The translations under genes were made by a program, and so were the position numbers. 64,000 nt of DNA from Bacilli bacterium (GTDB lineage: Bacteria > Bacillota_I > Bacilli_A > RFN20 > CAG-826): positions 519,009 to 583,008 of the forward strand of contig JAVBTH010000001.1 of assembly GCA_031556235.1 (NCBI GenBank), given 5' to 3'. The notes below the pieces were generated by a model, which worked only from the letters and a program-made list of their open reading frames with translations, ran no database searches and had not been told where the DNA came from. Positions 42,656-51,596 of the stretch are shown piece by piece. Numbering within the stretch: the first letter of the stretch is position 1; every line of letters starts with the position of its first letter.

Positions 42656-42854
42656 CTAGTATGATTATACACTTTTGGCGTTATCTTTTAAATAAGGAAT
42701 ATCATCATTTTTTAAATCAAAACTTATTTTAATGAAACGTATATTAAATTTAATTTTTCTTATTTACTGATATTTGCAATCTATCGATTAACTTAAAAGC
42801 AATAATTTCATAAATACAAAATTATTGAACGAATTGTTAAAAAAATGTAATATA

Positions 42855-42871
42855 TTGACAACGACTGTCAA
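42855..42871. promoter_or_regulatory. Perfect inverted repeat TTGACA-ACGAC-TGTCAA (doubling as a -35-like hexamer on both strands)
   Basis: Read directly. Lies in the 360-nt AT-rich gap between dnaX and the downstream island. Confidence 0.45.
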
Positions 42872-42880
42872 TAAAAAGAG

Positions 42881-43000
42881 GTGCCCAATCATTATATACG
42901 CCATAGGCAGTAGATTTCGGGGGAAATACGAACACAACATTTAAAGAGAAGTATCAGCACAAATATAGCCCCTGCACCATTAACAGAGGCTATACTTTTT
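42881..43000 (+). other. Candidate structured leader/small RNA ending in an intrinsic terminator-like hairpin (TATAGCC-17 nt-GGCTATA plus T7)
   Basis: A hairpin plus T-run at 42962-43000 lies immediately upstream of the small HTH ORF. A 5' GGUGC can pair with GCACC in the terminator loop region. Confidence 0.3.
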
Positions 43001-43017
43001 TTGTGCTACTCGATCAT

Positions 43018-43203
43018 ATGGAAAATACGGTATATAGTAAAATATTTAGTTTAATATTTATAAATAAAGAAAACATTGGCTTAGAAGAAATTGCCGCAAG
43101 AGTTGGTGTTAGCCTTGATACTTTAAAAAGAAACATAAAAAAATGCATCATTATAATGGAATTTATACACACACATGCTGGCGATTATACCAAAGACATA
43201 TAA
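43018..43203 (+). CDS. Small HTH-domain protein (61 aa)
   Basis: LEEIAARVGVSLDTLKRNIKK resembles an HTH recognition unit. The ORF-track start at 43003 is a GTG. Confidence 0.4.
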   Translation: MENTVYSKIFSLIFINKENIGLEEIAARVGVSLDTLKRNIKKCIIIMEFIHTHAGDYTKDI

Positions 43204-43285
43204 ATTCTAACAGTGCAGATGTTGCGCTGTTTGAACTCTTTTGTTTGCGATAAATTGATGGTGAGCAAAGGAGGAAGGGATTGAG

Positions 43286-43717
43286 ATGGAGTTTTTAGAA
43301 CTAATAGAGATTGAGTTATTAAAGTCAGTAGGTTATGTGACCATAATATCGGCGGTATTTACAATTATACTAACTAGCATAATTAAGAAGATACTAGTCA
43401 AAAAAGATGTAATATACCCAAATATGTCGAAAGCCCATAAGGATGAAATATTATCAAAAATTGCGCGATATACGGCGCTTGTAAGTTATGCGATTGTATT
43501 CTTTCTTAATTTGTTTCTGACAAAACAAACTATAGAAATAGACGAAAATCTAATCATTTCGCTAACTTGCGGAGGCAGTATGACAATAATTGTCACTAAA
43601 GGAATTTACACAGCATTACACCAAGGTAGCAAAAAGCAACTCGCTTATACCGAGATGGAAAGAGCACTAGAAATCGAACGTTTAGTGGAAGCTGAAATAA
43701 TTTCACTTAAAAAGTAG
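43286..43717 (+). CDS. Small membrane protein (about 3 TM) with a coiled C-terminal tail
   Basis: Hydrophobic segments and a GGAGG RBS upstream. Confidence 0.45.
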   Translation: MEFLELIEIELLKSVGYVTIISAVFTIILTSIIKKILVKKDVIYPNMSKAHKDEILSKIARYTALVSYAIVFFLNLFLTKQTIEIDENLIISLTCGGSMTIIVTKGIYTALHQGSKKQLAYTEMERALEIERLVEAEIISLKK

Positions 43718-43729
43718 AAAGGAGAAAAA

Positions 43730-44443
43730 ATGGAAACAAGTAAAATGCCAGGAATGTCTATAAGTTTTATCAGAAATGAATATGGAAATAAGTTTTTGAT
43801 TTTTAAAAGCGAAAGAATCACTCATGAATTAGAAGATAAACTTCGCTATGGAAGCATTAGAATGCAAATTTGGCTAGAAAAAAAGGTGCGAAAAGCCAAT
43901 GGTAAGAATCGTGTCAAAAAATGGGTTCATCCAGCGGATAAAAGTTCAACAGCACCAGTGAGATTTAGTGAAGAAGAAATTTTATTTAGACAAGGTTGGG
44001 GAGTTAGAACTTACAGTCCAGATTCCGGATTTTGTCCAAGTTATTCTACCACTAACGGATATGTTCCAACGGAATGGGAAGTAACTATAGACGATGTTAA
44101 AAGAGGCTGCATTGAGCGTAAAATTCCCTTCGATGATATAATTTCAAATATTATAACCTATAATGAGGCTCTCGTTTTTGACGAATCTTATAATATAATT
44201 GATGGTCCGTTTGAAATACCTAGTGGAACGGAATTATCACAAATTAGACTTATTGGAAATAGAACAAGTAGTAAAATTGAAATTCGTGTCAAATTAGTCA
44301 TTAAAGAAAATAATCTATTGACTAGTGGGACGTCACTTAATTCAGCTTTAGTAGGTCTTAGAAAAGAAGGGAATCTACCAGATTTTGATCGGATCTTTGA
44401 CGCTGAAAATGTAATGAAAATAGCCGCGATAGTAATTAAATAG
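43730..44443 (+). CDS. Hypothetical protein (237 aa), no recognisable family
   Basis: ORF with an AGGAG RBS, tightly coupled to the preceding gene. Confidence 0.45.
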   Translation: METSKMPGMSISFIRNEYGNKFLIFKSERITHELEDKLRYGSIRMQIWLEKKVRKANGKNRVKKWVHPADKSSTAPVRFSEEEILFRQGWGVRTYSPDSGFCPSYSTTNGYVPTEWEVTIDDVKRGCIERKIPFDDIISNIITYNEALVFDESYNIIDGPFEIPSGTELSQIRLIGNRTSSKIEIRVKLVIKENNLLTSGTSLNSALVGLRKEGNLPDFDRIFDAENVMKIAAIVIK

Positions 44444-44510
44444 AATTGGTTAGTGAGGCTTGTTCATGATTTCTTCTTAAAGAGATTTATAAGTCGAAGC
44501 GTTGAGAAAT

Positions 44511-44519
44511 TGTTATAAT
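44511..44519 (+). promoter_or_regulatory. Extended -10 promoter element TGtTATAAT upstream of the rhs gene
   Basis: TGnTATAAT match. The nearby TTGAGA is only 5 nt away and so is not a functional -35. Confidence 0.45.
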
Positions 44520-44520
44520 C

Positions 44521-44705
44521 ACTTCAGGCAATTGAAGTGAGCGGGGACTCTTATTCGATAGTAACAACTATCTACAGAATGAGGAGCCACTAAAGACTTT
44601 TCTTTAGATTCGATCAAAAAGTTTCACGACCCAATTCATGTATATAAGACCGATAGTTAAAAATATCGGTCTCATTTTAAATCATGGAAAAAGGAGATAA
44701 ATAAA
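44521..44705 (+). promoter_or_regulatory. About 180-nt structured 5' leader of the rhs gene, with a hairpin at the putative TSS and a 9-bp hairpin AGACCGATA-gttaaaaa-TATCGGTCT followed by cattttaaa
   Basis: The hairpins were read from the sequence. A strong RBS AAAGGAG lies 8 nt before the ATG at 44706. Confidence 0.4.
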
Positions 44706-47700
44706 ATGAGTACAAAAAGAACTGTGTCGATTATACCCAGTTTAACTGGAGTAACAGATAGCAATAATAGACTGACATTAGGTAAAAACATTGGTATAGG
44801 CATTACGATTCCTGCTACCAATCTGAATATAAATGAAAATGAAAAAATCAGCAGTGCGGTATTAATGCTCCGCATAGAGGGTTTTTATACGACTATGACT
44901 GGTTCATCAAATTTCACTGCTTATTTGATCGACAAAAATAATAAAAAAATAGCTTTAAAAGCTTTTAAACTATCCTCAATTCAAAGCGCAATGACAATAC
45001 CTTTGCTATTTGATGTAGGAGGTTTTCTAAAAGAAACCTTGTTGGGCGAAGACATATTATTAGCGCTCAAAATAGATGTGCCTCTCTTAGGAACGCATTA
45101 TTTAAATATTTCTAAACAAGGAGAATTGGTAGTCAGTTTAGAGTCTGTTGAAGAGGATCAAGCAGATGAGGGTGAAACAGGTGATAATGAGTCAGGCGAA
45201 GAAACTGCTTATGAATTAGATATTGACCGAAAAGATAGTGCAGTATCGGATGAAATTAATAAGATTATCTCGCTTACCGCAAGAGGGGCCGAATACTCTG
45301 AAGCGAATGATCCTATTCCTAATGGAGGGTTCACGGTTGGTTTTAATGGATATGGACATGGCGACGTAGATTACGTTGTGGCAGTTAATCAAGTCTTAAA
45401 AGATTTAAAAGATTTTGCAATAGAAAATGTGAAAATGGTTTTGAAAATTGATGATCATAAAAGACAGCAAATCGATGAAAATTTACCACTAGTAGCAATG
45501 GTTCATGGAAGCGACATTCTTGATGTGTTTACAGTGAACAATGATGCAGAAATGGAGTTTGATGTTACTAAAATATTCTTGTCTCCAATCGATAATATAT
45601 TGGTGAAGATTAAATCATTTTCAACTTTATCAAAACTAAACTATATTTTAGTTTCAGAAGATTCGGCTACTTTTAGGATTAAAGTAAAAGAAAAACATAA
45701 CACCGATAGAACTAGTATTACTAAAACATTAAAAAATCGTGACGAATTGCGTATCGATTTGTGTGATGGAAATCAAGTTCATGAGCACGTTTTGCTTACT
45801 AAAGAAGAAAGCCAACTGCCATTCGATATAACCCAAATTGGCAGCAAGCATGGTATAAAACTCAATATTGAGCAAAAACTTGAAACTGATGTAAAATTTG
45901 GAAATCTAGAATCAGATGGAAAAATTTCACGTGTAATCGAGGCAAATGGTGAGTCAAGGATATTTGTTGAAAAGTATTTTTATTATATGGGTGATAAAAG
46001 AATATTTGTTTCTAAGAATGACGTAATCAAAGTTAGTGAAGAAAAATATGAGATTAAATTAGAAGATAAAATACATGAAGTTTTCAAAGCTAGTATTGAT
46101 GAGAATGGAAATGCTTTAGTTTCTAGTAAAGAAGAAGATATAGATGTAGGTTTATTCTTAAAAAAATTTGGAGACAAAGTCTCTGAAGTTAAAATGTATT
46201 GTTACATTAATGATACAAGAAAAGAAATAACAATTGATGATAATATAGCAAATGTATCATCTATATATTACTTTGAGCATAGTGGAGTTTTTCCATTGAG
46301 TGACGTGGCAATCAGGAAAGATTCACTAGGAACTTATTTTGTATGCGACGGTGAGAGATTTGTGGTTGGAATAAAGGATCATAAGTTTGAAGTTATAGAT
46401 AAAAGTAACAAAATATATTTTCAGATTCCAACGAAATATTCTATAGATAATCATGATAATGCGCAAATAGCTGAATACGAATTAATAGAAATTTTTTCGG
46501 AAAAAGATAATATTTCTAAACATCTCCCAGAAATTTTTAAAAATGAAGATTTACTAATGAAAATCGAGGAATTAGAACAAACAAATGACTATATTAAGCA
46601 AATTAAAAATCAATTAGATGAAATAGAAATAAACAAAAATGATGCAAGACAAAAAACATATAAAGAAATTTTTAATATTAAAAACATCCTGCAAGACATT
46701 TATAATGAATGGAATAGTTTTAATAGAGATGAAGAATGGAATAAAGTAAAAAACATTTACTTTCCTGATGAATGTGAATATTTGTCGAAAGAAGATTGTT
46801 ATAAGTATCTTAACGATGCGTTAAATGACTTAGTTATATCTACAGATTTTGTTTTAAACGAATATAATATGTCGAGAATAGTTGAAAGCAAAGATTGTTT
46901 GTTAAGACCACTTAGTACTGGGTTAAATTATAATTTGCCGAGAGAAGTTTTTCTTCCAAAACTTAATGCATGCATAAATTCATTCAATTCTAAGCTTGCA
47001 TACGAAAACGAACAGATACAAAATGATACTATAGAGAAACAAAAAACGAGAATTAGTAAAGAATTAGAAAAATATCAAAATATAAAGAAGAAACTCTTTG
47101 ATGATATAAGGGTTCTATGGAGAAAATATTCATCCGGTCCAGTAAGTTTTATATTAAATCAAGATGAAAACTATTATGGATATGATTCAAAAGGCAGTTT
47201 TATCACCATGGGCAACAAAAAAGAAGAGACGTTGCGAATCATTTATGACGATAAACTCTCAGAATTTGGAGTAATATCGACAATTTATTTTAAAAACGAA
47301 AAGTTTGTTACTTTTTCATATGAGAATAATCAACTTAACAGAGTGAAAGCAGAGACGGGTAAGTTCGTTGAATTGGAAATGCTTGCAAATCAAATCAAGT
47401 ATAACCATAACAATAAATACGATGTTGATATAACTTGGAACGGAGAAACTCTTCGAGTTAGTAATAATGAGCATTATTTAGAAGCATCAAATTTATTTTA
47501 TGACCCACCAATAATTAAAGGAGAATCATGTCATAAATTCTTAAAAGTCGGAGGACTGATTACTAGTTATAATAGTCAAAAAATTGATGGTGGAGAAGAT
47601 ATTTATTTAGAAGAATATGATATTCACTTTATAAGCGATACTGTTACTAAAGTAGAGAATTTACAAAATAAACTAGTTCAGCAATATATCTTTAATCACT

Positions 47701-50700
47701 TAGGTGAAGTTGTGAGCACATTCAACTATTATTTGGAAAACGATCGTGAAAACGTTGAAGATATTGCCTTTAATGCAGTGAAACGCAATATAGGAAACAA
47801 GACTATTGAAGTTAAACAAACGAAAGTAGATATAATTGAACCGATTACTTTTGAAAACGGCATTAATGATTGGATAAGTTCCGCGGGAACAGTCGCAAAT
47901 ATTGCTAGCAATCAGCATTTCACAGGTAGCAAATCTTTAGAGATTGTAGGTGGAATTAACAAAAAGGCTAGCGTTAGTAAGAATATCACTTTAAATAAAT
48001 TTCCGATAAATAAAGCTTTTTCAGTCTCAGTATGGGCTAAAGCTGATGCGATGATTATGAACGACATATGCATTATTAACGAACCAGCAAAATCAGATGA
48101 AGGCAATGTTACTAAGTTTACTTTGCGAGTTGAGACAAAATTTAAAAAACGCTCACAGATTTTTGTAAGTGAGGCTGGTTTTGATGCACTTACAAGTGAT
48201 TGGCAATTACTTTCTGTGCCGGTGTCATTAAGATTTGCAAGCGAATTAAGCGATATAGTTAGTGTAAAAATTGTTCTTAAATATGAATACAACAACGGCA
48301 ATGTTTATTTTGATGACTTACATGTGGGCGAATGTTCGTATTCTCTTATTGAAGTTAATGATGAAGGTGTTGTGGTTTATCAAGAGAGTGAAAATGAAAG
48401 AACATATTATCTAAACTTAGTGGATAAAAAGCCAACGATTTCTTTGACTTTTGATAATGATGGCGAGAAGTATCATAACTACTTTAGTTATGGTGAAAAC
48501 GGTCAATTAGTTAAAGAAGAAAATCATTTAGGAATTATCAAAGAATATTTGTTTGATGAAAAAAATAAGAAAAGAGTCATTAAAACTTATCATAAAGATG
48601 AACCAGCTAATTCAATTTATGAAGAAAATATTTTTGATGAAAATGGTCGCAAAATAAAAGAAAGCACCAGTCGTGGTGGCTATCGTAATTATGGATTGTA
48701 TAATAATTATGAATATCATCAAAATTCTGATTTAGTTAGAAGTTATCAAGATGGTAGAGGTAATAAAACATATTATGGATATGATGAGGATAATCGTCTA
48801 ATAAATATTACTAGTTCGGTTAATGATGAAGAATGTTCGACATCAATCAAGTACGCTGGAGAATATATATGTAGAATGAGGACAGGAGATAATGAATATA
48901 CATATTCATATGATACTCGAGGACGTTTGTTAAACTTTAATATCAATAATCAAGAATATTTAAATAGCTCTTTTGAAGAAATTGACTTTGAAGATGTAAC
49001 AGTTACAACATACGGAACAGCGGAACAGTTTGTTAGCAAAGTAAGTAAGGATAAAAAATCAAATGTAATTATTTATAATGGTGAAATGTTACAGGAAATA
49101 AGTAAACTTGATCATGATACATACGAGATTAAGGACTATTTAAATAAAGCAATATATTTAATAGATGAAGAATCGGTTGACTGTAGAACACTTGATGCAA
49201 GTGAATTGATATATAGAAAAACGGTAAATCCACACATTCATAGTGTAAATTATGAAATTAACAATTGTGGAACAATAAAAGAATATACCTACATTACTCA
49301 TTATGATAATTTATTAGATCAAAAAATTAAAGAGTATAGTATTAATGAATCAACTAAGCAACTTTTTGACTATGATTTGCTCAATCGCGTTAAAAAGATA
49401 TGTATTTCTGAAAATGATAATAATTTGCTCGAATATAATTATAAATATTTAAAAGCTGGAGACTATGCAAGTAATATTATAAACAAAGTTACCAGATTTG
49501 TTTCAGAGGAATTAGAAAAAGAAACAAATTATAAATATGATGAAATAGGCAATATTATTGAAATATTGCAAAATGGTGAGACCACACATCGTTACAAATA
49601 TGATAGTGTTAGTCGTTTAGTTAGAGAAGATAATAAAGTTTTGAATTTAACTAATTTGTTTAGCTATGACTGTAATGGAAATATTTTGAGTAAAACATGT
49701 TATGGGTTTGCAAATGGAAAGTTAATAGATAAATTTTCAGGTAATAAACATGTATACACTTACGATAAGGACAATCAAGACCGTTTAATTGACTTTAATG
49801 GTGAAAAATGTACATATGACAAAATTGGAAATCCAAAGATTTACCGCGACAAAACTCTAACTTGGAGTCACTTACGTGATTTAATTAATTATGGACCCGT
49901 AACTTTTACGTATGGTGCAAATCATATGAGAACAAGTAAAAACTTATACGGCAACATTAGTAAGTATGTTTATGATGGAAATAATTTAATATTTGAAACG
50001 AGAAGTGATGGAACGACTATCGCCTATTTCTATGGCGCAGAGGGAATATTGGGATTTGAATACTGCGGGGAAAAGTATTTCTATGGAAAAAGTTTGCAAG
50101 GTGATGTTGATTGCATATATAATAAAGATGGAAAAATTATAGTAAAATATGAGTACGATGGGTGGGGGAATGTTAGAACTATTAATGGAAATGAAAAAAA
50201 TATAGGCGATATAAATGCGATAAGATATAGAGGATACTATTTTGATGTTGAAACTAATCTATATTACTTAAAATCTAGGTATTATGATCCAGAAACTGGA
50301 CGCTTTATTAATGCAGATGATATAAGCTACCTTGATCCGGAAACTATTAATGGTTTAAATTTATATGCTTACTGCAGAAATAACCCTATTAGATTTAAAG
50401 ATGAAATGGGCCGTTTTCCAAATAGTGATAGTGATGCCTATGAATTATTGGCAGCGGCTCTCGAGTTTAGCATAGGATTTGTATATGCGTTTAAAGCGTT
50501 TGGAATTAATCAAGATCTAAAAACAGCTACTTGGCCTCCTTACATTACAAAATACACTAATGAATTAACGGCGTTAAATAATACTTTGAAAATTGTCCAA
50601 AAAGCAGCAACTGTGTTAGCTGTAATTGGAATTGCTATTTCTACGATAGAAAACATAAATTCGGACATAAAAAAAGGTTACTCAACTGGAAGAATAGTAT

Positions 50701-50963
50701 CAAATGCCATCGTTAATACTGTAGTCAATTCCATAAGTACATTTGGCTTTGCAGCTTTAGGCTCAAAAATTGGTGGAGTAATAGGATCGTTTATTCCAAT
50801 TCCAGGTGTCGGTACCGCGATTGGAATGGTGATAGGGGCAGTGATTGGGTATGGTGTGGGTTTAGTATTTAACGCTGTGATGAATTTGAAAATAGGCGGC
50901 AAAAGTATTATGGATCATATTAGAGATGGATTTTATAACTTTTGGAAAAGTATATTTAGATAA
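44706..50963 (+). CDS. Giant Rhs/YD-repeat polymorphic toxin (2085 aa): unknown N-terminal region, acidic stretch, CBM4/9-like beta-sandwich, YD repeats, Rhs repeat-associated core, variable C-terminal glycine-zipper toxin domain
   Basis: Many YD repeats (e.g. [61 protein letters not shown]). The Rhs core reads [33 protein letters not shown]...[18 protein letters not shown]. The CBM-like domain is at about 47844-48332 (FENGINDW...[10 protein letters not shown]...FSVSVWAK...WQLLSV...VYFDDLHV). The N-terminus has no signal peptide. Confidence 0.85.
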   Translation: [2085 protein letters not shown]

Positions 50964-50972
50964 TAGTGAGGA

Positions 50973-51407
50973 ATGAAAATGAAAAAAATAAGCTTAGTGT
51001 CAATTGGTATAAAAATAATTATTGCGGTTTTAATTTTAATTTTTCTCGCCGCATTTGTTTTTCTAGCCATTTATGAAGGTCTAACGTCTTCAAACGTATT
51101 ATTCTATATTTTACTGCTACTCGCGATTAGTATAATGATTCTTTCTATAATTTTAAGTTTTAAAAGCAGGATACTAATTAATTATAATGAAAAGTACTTT
51201 GTAGTAAATAAAAAAAAGATAAATTTTTGTAATATAAAAGATGTGATTGTTTCGGAAACCTTAGTTAATAAAAGAATTAAACGTGCTATTATAATTCAAA
51301 AGAATGGAATAGAGGTAGAATTTATGTACATCTGTATTGGAAATAGAAGACAGACGAAAAAAATAATTAGTATTTCTAACGAATTAAAACTCTTAAACAT
51401 TACATAG
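50973..51407 (+). CDS. Putative cognate immunity protein of the Rhs C-terminal toxin (two-TM membrane protein plus small cytoplasmic domain)
   Basis: Sits immediately (9 nt) downstream of the rhs stop with its own GAGG RBS. Two TM helices. Position is typical of rhsI. Confidence 0.5.
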   Translation: MKMKKISLVSIGIKIIIAVLILIFLAAFVFLAIYEGLTSSNVLFYILLLLAISIMILSIILSFKSRILINYNEKYFVVNKKKINFCNIKDVIVSETLVNKRIKRAIIIQKNGIEVEFMYICIGNRRQTKKIISISNELKLLNIT

Positions 51408-51449
51408 AAATGCGATTTAAACATTTAGCGAGTTTTGGTGCAGAGAGAA

Positions 51450-51480
51450 AGGTAAATCATAAAAATGATTTACCTTTTTA
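51450..51480 (+). terminator. Strong rho-independent terminator closing the rhs operon
   Basis: 11-bp perfect stem AGGTAAATCAT-aaaa-ATGATTTACCT followed by TTTTTA. Confidence 0.85.
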
Positions 51481-51596
51481 TAAGAAAATGATTTAAAGTG
51501 ATTGGAGAAATATAATTATTTTGAATCATAAAAAACAAAAAACTTTATTGTTTTTATTAAAAGTGATAAAATAATGTGCCGAAAGTAGGGATAACC

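Follow-up and report, generated by a model that had tools for sequence, protein, structure and literature searches.

How Gram-positive toxins of the Rhs/WapA type find and enter their targets is poorly understood, and the question raised by this locus is what a CBM-type module is doing in the middle of the shell of one of them. The window, i.e., the whole stretch of 64,000 nucleotides that was analysed, derives from an uncultured bacterium of low GC content in the Bacilli, and a copy identical to its Rhs protein, P0001, was found in a public collection on a contig of 672,584 bp. The reading that we favour, at a probability of about 0.55, is that the CBM inserted in the shell docks the Rhs toxin container on a glycan of the target-cell envelope. 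The features of the toxin gene that bear on it are these:

44706..50963, + strand: complete Rhs/YD-repeat polymorphic toxin gene encoding P0001 (2085 aa; ORF list and translation)
47151..47813, + strand: upstream YD-like beta-hairpin stretch (aa 816-1036), proposed to be the start of the Rhs shell ahead of the insertion
47817..48365, + strand: CBM4/9/16/22-type beta-jelly-roll module (family-HMM envelope, aa 1038-1220)
48351..50105, + strand: YD repeats that make up the Rhs shell downstream of the module (aa 1216-1800)
50154..50411, + strand: Rhs-associated core domain (aa 1817-1902; TIGR03696 and a C-terminal match to NF041261 RHS_core)

P0001 is an Rhs/YD-repeat polymorphic toxin, as judged by its Rhs core, its glycine-zipper/transmembrane C-terminus and an immunity-like ORF with two transmembrane (TM) segments downstream of it. 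The core was matched over its listed interval by TIGR03696 (Rhs_assc_core) with an E-value of 3.1e-20 (72.4 bits vs. a cut-off of 32.5), and motif positions placed RYYDPETGRF and DPETINGLNLYAYCRNNP within it; it marks where the shell ends and where autoproteolysis presumably cuts. A YD repeat was recognized at aa 1611-1641 by TIGR01643 (E 5e-6, 26.8 bits vs. a cut-off of 15.8), and Pfam RHS_repeat scored below its cut-off on the protein (14.7 vs. 22). At the other end of P0001, hydropathy revealed neither a signal peptide nor a hydrophobic segment, the N-terminal 805 aa had no match in PHROGs, and Pfam and NCBIfam searches produced no match at E<=1 to PAAR, LXG, LysM, DNRLRE/CBM96 or DUF6531, and no recognisable wall-anchor domain. 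A DUF6531-like string, IDLCDGN, at aa 350 was spotted by eye only.

The preliminary description had proposed a CBM4/9-like beta-sandwich at 47844-48332, a segment that in frame +1 corresponds to aa 1047-1209 of P0001, and the peptide it quoted is the exact translation of that interval. These coordinates fall within the family-HMM envelope of the module, whose folded core is put at about aa 1044-1210 (nt 47835-48335). In the AlphaFold model, the strands predicted well run from about aa 1057 to 1210. Based on the envelope and these strands, the interval encodes a real, bounded domain, a beta-sandwich of about 165 residues. The proposed fold was upheld, since the predicted beta-jelly-roll can be superposed on solved CBMs and relatives of the segment match CBM_4_9; the module is a single CBM-type beta-jelly-roll of the galactose-binding-like superfamily, closest to CBM16, CBM22 and CBM4_9. 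Compared with CBM16 and its relatives in the CBM4/9/16/22 group, it has a longer loop at about aa 1110-1135, where pLDDT is 54-66.

The homology of the module emerged through its relatives. Searched directly against Pfam, NCBIfam and the sequences of the PDB, the segment returned no CBM, and Pfam CBM_4_9 (PF02018, gathering score 25.9 bits) gave no match at E<=1 whether the query was the whole of P0001, a 203-aa segment or a 181-aa segment. An exhaustive phmmer search with aa 1030-1225 as query, covering 1.84 billion representative proteins, found 21 relatives at E<=1e-3 (from 9.9e-13 for the best to 8e-4 for the weakest), most of them aligned across nearly the whole domain. Seventeen of the 21 had a full-length domain match, and almost all of the 17 are YD-repeat proteins. 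Together with the window segment and a further Rhs protein (P0041) they formed a family alignment, A1, of 19 sequences, nine of which match CBM_4_9, the best at 1e-9, so that the PF02018 check proposed in the preliminary description failed for the segment itself and succeeded for close to half of its family. The profile of A1 in turn matched solved structures, namely 4q8k (1.7e-7), the CBM16 entries 2zex and 2zew (6e-6), 4d0q (1.3e-3) and, weakly, CBM4-2. Word-indexed homology searches with the segment or with A1 found no relatives, a blank that we attribute to the sensitivity of those tools, given what phmmer recovered, and do not count as evidence. A scan of genome contigs with the segment also returned no relative. 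The resemblance of the module to its relatives is, at the level of sequence, far beyond chance, and these comparisons place it in a CBM lineage that occurs almost exclusively in YD-repeat proteins. E-values and fold results rule out a chance motif reading of the module, and they likewise exclude a minus-strand gene at the overlapping ORF 47912-48301 (129 aa), for which there was no support.

What a domain of this fold might bind is a separate matter. Within the wider CBM4/9/16/22 beta-jelly-roll group (PF02018), its nearest known counterpart is the CBM16 of Caldanaerobius polysaccharolyticus ManA/Man5A (2zew, 2zex, 2zey and 2zez), which is joined to a glycoside hydrolase, whereas the P0001 module lies inside a toxin shell. 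Plant beta-glucans, mannans and xylans are the ligands of the closest solved folds, and Ruminococcus sp. and gut metagenomes are the sources of the relatives that carry a name, both of which would suit a module that binds an environmental glycan, such as dietary fibre or host mucin, and thereby places the toxin in a shared gut niche. We regard this as very improbable, as the island within the window has no glycoside hydrolase or dockerin context and the identity of the module to plant-polysaccharide CBMs is only 12-22%, a level at which sugar specificity is not transferable to it.

The fold is also shared by domains that bind protein (MAM, ephrin-receptor and reelin domains), and 4q8k, the best PDB match of the A1 profile, comes from a PL18 alginate lyase, where it forms the CBM16-like domain at the N-terminus, part of a CBM16-like group for which no carbohydrate binding had been reported and a role as a folding aid has been proposed (PMC5651945). 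In addition, the positions conserved throughout A1 (the W in SGWAK, DWQ, Y.YN and YFD) resemble core residues. All of this would fit a CBM fold that does not bind carbohydrate and whose role is to brace the structure, to assist folding within the molecule or to offer the Rhs shell a site for protein-protein contact, e.g., with a partner or receptor protein; we consider this doubtful. Among the fold matches, there are also glycan or receptor binders from phages (tailspikes and tail fibres) and from toxins of the Cry, Vip and binary types; the receptor-binding CBM-like domains of this kind include those of CBA120 TSP4, Klebsiella phage Kp7 gp52, the Cry protoxin domains, Vip1/3/4 and CDTb RBD1. 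With 9-21% identity and other host proteins, their likeness to the P0001 module is one of function type and fold, not of close family, and by analogy with them the module probably serves to dock on sugars of the cell surface.

The preliminary description had placed YD repeats on both sides of the module. Downstream the repeats are clear, with nine YD motifs in aa 1216-1800, a number matched by none of 500 shuffles; from aa 1337-1588 onward, P0001 and the Rhs proteins of its relatives are 31-38% identical, and AF2 pLDDT is mostly 75-95 over about aa 1545 to 1875. The shell model of P0001 matched Rhs and teneurin shells with Foldseek E-values of 5e-29 to 1e-22. This AlphaFold model, of 1160 aa, had a pTM of 0.44 and a TM of ~0.24 to solved shells, did not reproduce shell closure, and is usable for local secondary structure alone. 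Upstream the proposal held weakly. Two motifs were found there, YGYDSKG at aa 824 (nt 47175, in agreement with the start at about 47171 given in the preliminary description) and YIFNHLG at aa 994, a count that 21 of 500 shuffles also reached, and in aa 816-1036 AF2 shows beta-hairpins only, with pLDDT at ~50-79 in some portions and under 50 in the rest. Pfam RHS_repeat and a custom HMM had no significant match in this stretch; the HMM, built from the upstream YD region of the relatives, gave a collinear alignment to P0001 with negative, non-significant scores, so the upstream repeats of P0001 are unproven by sequence.

It was the relatives that argued for an insertion. The family HMM found the domain, in one or two copies, in 30 of the 30 nearest Rhs homologues (P0002-P0031), as well as in P0041 and P0045-P0063, and apart from P0041 it found none in the distant Rhs proteins P0032-P0044. 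In the relatives, strict YD motifs flank the domain on both sides, and the module is often a tandem pair that follows DUF6531 and Pfam-significant RHS repeats; their upstream segments carry RHS_repeat (E 4e-13 to 2e-4) and DUF6531, and that of P0060 holds a first CBM_4_9 copy (2.6e-11). P0001 is collinear with these proteins in a global alignment (A2), in which its CBM aligns to their second CBM and their significant RHS repeats map onto its aa ~850-905. The distance from the end of the module to the start of the Rhs core is also nearly constant, at ~550-610 aa in most relatives and 571 aa in P0001. The flanking motifs, the upstream RHS_repeat and DUF6531, the collinearity and the constant distance bear out the claim that the module is an insertion in the Rhs shell, and the alignments show its insertion site to be conserved. 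A search for CBM-Rhs genes on viral contigs gave two weak relatives, both of them CBM_4_9 modules in tail-fibre-like proteins and not in Rhs proteins, which fits the analogy with tail fibres.

Conservation of the module extends to its sequence. Within the near-identical Ruminococcus-type family (P0002-P0025) the CBMs are not hypervariable, the sole dip lying between the two CBMs, and past the Rhs core column identity drops from ~0.9 to ~0.25, which makes the C-terminal toxin the true polymorphism. Hypervariability is what might be expected of a determinant of receptor specificity, and its absence counts against the docking reading. CBMs that are conserved and not diversified among close relatives would also fit a module that binds the producer's own wall glycopolymer, and so retains or displays the cocoon on the producer surface, as wall-binding regions do in WapA-type proteins, instead of recognising the target. 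In Gram-positive bacteria, WapA/Rhs toxins associate with the wall by way of LysM or DNRLRE-type regions at the N-terminus (PMC12704120), and P0001, having no recognisable wall anchor, could use its CBM as one. The module sits in the shell, however, outside the N-terminal anchoring region, and relatives with signal peptides hold the same inserted CBMs besides their N-terminal regions; in P0001, with no signal peptide, an ordered surface display is not obvious. On balance, we think it unlikely that the module serves to anchor the toxin to its producer.

WapA-type toxins (Bacillus subtilis WapA and Streptococcus suis WapA-CT, PMC12704120) share with P0001 a large YD shell, an Rhs core, a Bacillota host, a C-terminal putative toxin and an adjacent candidate immunity gene. 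WapA, in contrast to P0001, has a Sec signal peptide and N-terminal wall-binding LysM and DNRLRE domains, none of which are detectable in P0001, and in the literature examined a shell-inserted CBM, present in P0001, is not described for WapA. For such an insertion, the precedent is the mosquito protein SGS1, in which a CBM and a lectin domain are inserted in an Rhs/YD shell and are surface-exposed (PMC9935623). Both proteins have a YD/Rhs cocoon with putative receptor domains (in SGS1, the CBM and lectin-CRD) made from segments within the repeat sequence, the shell of SGS1 encloses membrane-type helices, and the P0001 shell model matches SGS1 (8fjp) with a Foldseek E-value of 1.5e-19. Unlike P0001, SGS1 is eukaryotic, has ~3000 aa or more, and possesses a wedge domain along with two beta-propellers; the CBM of SGS1, for which an Ig-like sandwich is described, was absent from the best 50 fold matches of the P0001 module. 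The likeness is one of design, and there is no sign that the inserted modules share ancestry or occupy a common site. SGS1 with its CBM and lectin, the TcB propeller and the teneurin NHL make up a group of shell-decorating domains, and the P0001 module is likewise encoded between YD repeats. The "decorated cocoon" design of SGS1 is thereby extended to bacterial toxins, although the known picture of Rhs toxins is unchanged by the module, which is a sensible and not very surprising variation on a known design.

The docking of the container would be in the service of the C-terminal cargo, which lies within an island of genes:

43286..44443, + strand: two small same-strand ORFs of the island, directly upstream of the toxin gene, possible accessory/release factors
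43286-43717, + strand: the first of these, 143 aa with 2-3 TM segments (ORF list and hydropathy)
43730-44443, + strand: the second, 237 aa (ORF list)
50481..50960, + strand: C-terminal cargo, a putative membrane-acting toxin (~aa 1926-2085, ~160 aa), hydrophobic and glycine-zipper rich
50973..51407, + strand: candidate immunity ORF of 144 aa with two predicted TM helices, 10 nt past the toxin stop codon

The cargo has hydrophobic segments at aa 1960-1981 and aa 2025-2061, no sequence relative in the PDB, and Pfam matches that are all under curated cut-offs (DUF6861, E 1e-4; Gly-zipper_Omp, 0.019; Gly-zipper_YMGG, 0.086). Its closest parallel in kind is Tse5 of Pseudomonas aeruginosa (8cp6; PMC10684867), in which an Rhs cocoon surrounds a small hydrophobic C-terminal fragment that is pore-forming and depolarises membranes. 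As in Tse5, the C-terminus of P0001 is hydrophobic and rich in glycine zippers, and the shells match with a Foldseek E-value of 1.4e-22, but Tse5 is delivered by a T6SS and has no inserted CBM, and the two toxin domains share no sequence similarity.

In the mechanism that we propose, in which the exposed position of the module, sugar binding and its specificity, the way of release and how the toxin acts are all inferred, the YD repeats would form the usual closed cocoon around a C-terminal glycine-zipper membrane toxin, and the CBM would project from the exterior of the cocoon some 570 residues ahead of the Rhs core. Its outward-facing position is presumed, the shell model (pTM 0.44, TM ~0.24) being what it is. 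The container would leave the producer via lysis or a holin-like route, as a free particle needing a targeting module of its own. On the target, the CBM would serve as an adhesin or receptor-binding module, tethering the released container to an envelope glycan (wall polysaccharide, teichoic acid or capsule). The container would thereby be enriched at the surface before its C-terminal domain, once freed by autoproteolysis, arrives at the membrane; the 2-TM ORF further downstream would shield the producer.

Two relatives lacking a signal peptide, P0045 and P0061, have a Hol44-type phage holin immediately upstream of the Rhs gene. That position behind phage holins, together with the absence of a signal peptide from P0001, makes a lysis or holin-like release, followed by action as a free particle, plausible. 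It is possible, if unlikely, that the lineage as a whole is the target-recognition device of a bacteriocin-like, lysis/holin-released free-cocoon toxin in a clade of gut Bacillota, with glycan specificity residing in the CBM or CBM pair; if true, such free cocoons would give a first handle on target choice by Gram-positive Rhs toxins. The module is a concrete and easily expressed candidate for the receptor-recognition step, found across a clade of Rhs proteins of gut Firmicutes.

The island genes of the window add some detail. The 143-aa and 237-aa ORFs had no Pfam, NCBIfam or PHROGs match, and the 143-aa ORF is not detectably a holin, its BLAST comparison with the holins of the relatives yielding a non-significant E-value of 0.13 in a tiny database. 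By its position, the 144-aa ORF is a candidate immunity protein; hydropathy places its segments at residues 3-40 and 36-70, and Pfam gives it a weak hint of DUF6095 (E 0.005).

The segment at 47844-48332, which the preliminary description had read as a CBM4/9-like beta-sandwich, corresponds in frame +1 to residues 1047-1209 of a single uninterrupted ORF of 2085 aa (44706-50963, forward strand), and its translation reproduced the peptide quoted there. The host protein of this module is an Rhs toxin, and a divergent, AT-rich member of that group, the GC content along its gene being about 26-34%. NCBIfam profiles placed an Rhs-associated core at residues 1817-1902 (TIGR03696, E = 3.1e-20) and a YD repeat, scoring above its cut-off, at residues 1611-1641 (TIGR01643); Pfam RHS_repeat, at 14.7 bits, fell under its cut-off. 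An AlphaFold model of the shell (residues 806-1965, 1160 aa) matched Rhs, teneurin and Tc shells in Foldseek at E = 5e-29 to 1e-17, with poor global geometry (pTM 0.44, TM about 0.24 to those shells). An opposite-strand ORF of 129 aa (47912-48301) was rejected, support of any kind being absent.

The assignment of the module to a CBM-type fold is secure, because members of its family match Pfam CBM_4_9, the family profile and Foldseek both match solved CBMs, and AlphaFold predicts the fold with confidence. The window protein had no CBM_4_9 match at E ≤ 1, and its segment had no match among PDB sequences and returned nothing from a word-indexed homology search. At a threshold of E ≤ 1e-3, exhaustive phmmer against 1.84 billion representatives found 21 relatives (best E = 9.9e-13); in most of them the alignment spans almost the full domain and lies mid-protein, the proteins being 1000-2200 aa long. 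Nineteen sequences, namely the window segment, 17 phmmer relatives and the homologous protein P0041, were aligned (A1) and had the common pattern YN.L.NG.FE.G..GW ... S.SL...G ... Q.V.V ... ETFTLSGWAKA ... F.LRA.I.Y ... F...T.DWQ.ASV ... Y.YN.G.AYFD.I.LVR., with W75, F124, W131, Q132 and Y158 invariant. The expected CBM_4_9 match, missing for the window segment, was found individually for 9 of the 19 members (best 1e-9). Against solved structures, the A1 profile matched an alginate lyase of family PL18 in its N-terminal CBM16-like domain (4q8k, 1.7e-7), ManA CBM16-1 and CBM16-2 (about 6e-6), the hyaluronan-binding module 4d0q (1.3e-3) and, weakly, Cry protoxin domains and CBM4-2. The AlphaFold model built with A1 was all-beta (pLDDT 80.7, pTM 0.80), its weak spots being a loop at about residues 1110-1135 and the termini, and its nearest PDB fold by Foldseek was CBM16 (E = 4e-9, TM 0.78 normalised to the target), followed by CBM22, a porphyran-binding CBM, CBM11, CBM61, phage tailspikes and Cry protoxins. 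The beta-sandwich reading was borne out, profile and fold searches pointing to CBMs and not to another fold devoid of carbohydrate-binding relatives.

Known insertions in YD shells are the TcB propeller, the teneurin NHL domain, and the CBM and lectin domain of mosquito SGS1; within a limited literature search, no paper was found that describes a bacterial Rhs toxin with a CBM_4_9-type insertion. The module sits inside the Rhs shell of relatives: the 400 residues upstream of the matched domain hold Pfam RHS_repeat (E = 4e-13 to 2e-4) and, in P0041, DUF6531, and in most relatives strict YD motifs flank the domain on both sides. In P0060 that upstream stretch holds a first CBM_4_9 copy (2.6e-11), and the sequences suggest that further relatives may have one as well. 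With the A1 HMM, one or two copies of the domain were detected in each of the 30 nearest full-length homologues (P0002-P0031), and no copy in 13 more distant Rhs proteins (P0032-P0044), Pseudomonas proteins included. A tandem pair of CBM-type modules occupies the insertion site in most of P0002-P0031 and P0045-P0063; the window protein has a single module, which in a global alignment pairs with the second CBM of relatives. From module end to Rhs core there are about 550-610 aa in most homologues, the window protein having 571 aa, and this near-constant distance points to one conserved insertion site. The YD-like repeats proposed for both sides of the module were clear downstream, with nine motifs within residues 1216-1800 (a count matched in 0 of 500 shuffles), but weaker upstream, with two (matched in 21 of 500), at residues 994 and 824, the latter at nt 47175, in agreement with the suggested repeat start at about 47171. 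Upstream of the module in the window protein, an HMM search for repeats gave no significant match and the AlphaFold prediction consists of beta-hairpins only, of low to moderate confidence; the Pfam-significant upstream RHS repeats of relatives map by global alignment to window residues 850-905 or so. It is mainly because of the relatives, with their upstream RHS_repeat and DUF6531 and the fixed distance to the core, that we accept insertion into the shell as the probable arrangement in the window protein also.

By eye, IDLCDGN...LPFDITQI at residues 350-356 (45753-45773) resembles the shell-opening DUF6531 motif of relatives (e.g., IDLACGNL...PVTIRHLFNS in P0055); Pfam detected no DUF6531 in the window protein. 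Between this putative shell start and the YD-like hairpins, residues 621-815 or so (46566-47150) are rich in E, K, N and Q and read as helical or coiled-coil, with weak Pfam hints of WEMBL and DUF3958. Residues 1-340 (44706-45725) contain strings (DSNNRLTLG ... ISSAVLMLRIEG) reminiscent of DNRLRE/CBM96-type surface domains, which are found N-terminally in Gram-positive Rhs proteins, and the relative P0031 has a CBM96 match; family searches detected no such domain at the N-terminus of the window protein, and Pfam and NCBIfam gave no match to PAAR, LXG, LysM or DNRLRE within it.

Fold, lineage and analogy suggest that the module most likely serves as an exposed adhesin, by which the toxin container would attach to a glycan in the envelope of a target cell. 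Phage tail-fibre CBMs, and the sandwich domains with which Cry, Vip and binary toxins bind their receptors, are analogies for such a role, and in SGS1, as apparently here, a CBM is inserted in the YD shell, SGS1 having a lectin domain there in addition (PMC9935623). A CBM-type fold alone is no proof of sugar binding: for the CBM16-like domains found in PL18 alginate lyases no ligand had been reported, and they may assist folding (PMC5651945). A non-glycan role, structural or protein-binding, is the less likely reading beside glycan docking. The window protein has no signal peptide, and a released Rhs particle without one would need a docking module of this type. Anchoring of the toxin to the producer's own wall we consider less probable. 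Signal peptides are present in some relatives (P0005, P0041, P0048 and P0031) and absent, as in the window protein, from others. Two CBM-bearing relatives without one, P0045 and P0061, lie directly downstream of Hol44-type phage holins (loci L081 978-13223 and L085 1-6565; Pfam E = 3e-10 and 5e-25 for the holins). In L081, the genes ahead of P0045 encode a tail protein (BppU_N/collagen/GDSL), an endolysin (Amidase_2) and the holin; behind it comes a 749-aa orphan C-terminal Rhs fragment (Amidase_6), accompanied by a small ORF of its own. These settings suggest prophage-linked, lysis- or holin-released Rhs toxins. Distant relatives of the module occur on viral contigs (L086 4836-9692, L087 8000-12808) in tail-fibre-like proteins of about 1600 aa with CBM_4_9, that of L087 also with a Peptidase_S74 endosialidase chaperone; the L086 ORF has an odd terminase-like N-terminus and BppU-like_C, and is possibly mis-joined. 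Within the closely related P0002-P0025 family the CBMs are not diversified; polymorphism is confined to the C-terminal toxin, where it is complete after about residue 1870, apart from a smaller dip in the most variable internal stretch (about residues 951-1100), which lies between the two CBMs. Binding of environmental glycans is the least favoured of these roles. For work on how Gram-positive Rhs toxins recognise their targets, the module offers a convenient experimental entry point.

The Rhs gene is flanked by dnaX, recR, tmk and holB (minus strand) on one side and by prfA and prmC on the other. The closest PrfA sequences (61-75% identity) belong to MAGs of uncultured Bacilli, some of which carry the label Staphylococcaceae, Mollicutes or Erysipelotrichaceae. 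Three related MAGs (L004-L006) retain the holB-tmk-recR-dnaX ... prfA order; in the dnaX-prfA interval, two ORFs (213-319 aa) are present in L004 and L005, and L006 has no ORF of 150 aa or longer. Because the Rhs gene is absent from this interval in all three, the stretch surrounding it looks like a lineage-specific island, of ordinary composition and with no GC anomaly:

42656-51575: apparent island of about 8.9 kb, with a 143-aa TM ORF, a 237-aa ORF, the Rhs gene and a 144-aa TM ORF
43286-43717, forward strand: 143-aa ORF with two to three hydrophobic segments, upstream of the Rhs gene
43730-44443, forward strand: 237-aa soluble ORF, directly upstream of the Rhs gene
within 50481-51407, forward strand: C-terminal cargo, about 160 aa after the core, hydrophobic and glycine-zipper rich
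10 nt downstream of the toxin gene: 144-aa ORF with two TM helices

The 143-aa and 237-aa ORFs had no Pfam, NCBIfam or PHROGs match. No holin identity was detected for the former, despite its small-TM nature and a position comparable to that of the relatives' holins, its N-terminal resemblance to the L081 holin (MEFL..., VGYV) being insignificant. Rfam, which covers curated RNAs such as rRNAs and riboswitches, had no family at gathering score on either strand of the 64-kb window.

The cargo, hydrophobic at residues 1960-1981 and 2025-2061, gave Pfam hints of a glycine zipper and of DUF6861 (E = 1e-4, under the cut-off), and its roughly 160 residues had no PDB relative. A toxin gene followed by its immunity gene is the usual layout, and the 144-aa ORF is likely the immunity protein. 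Together, the cargo and this two-TM ORF suggest a membrane-acting cargo like that of Tse5, an Rhs toxin (PMC10684867).
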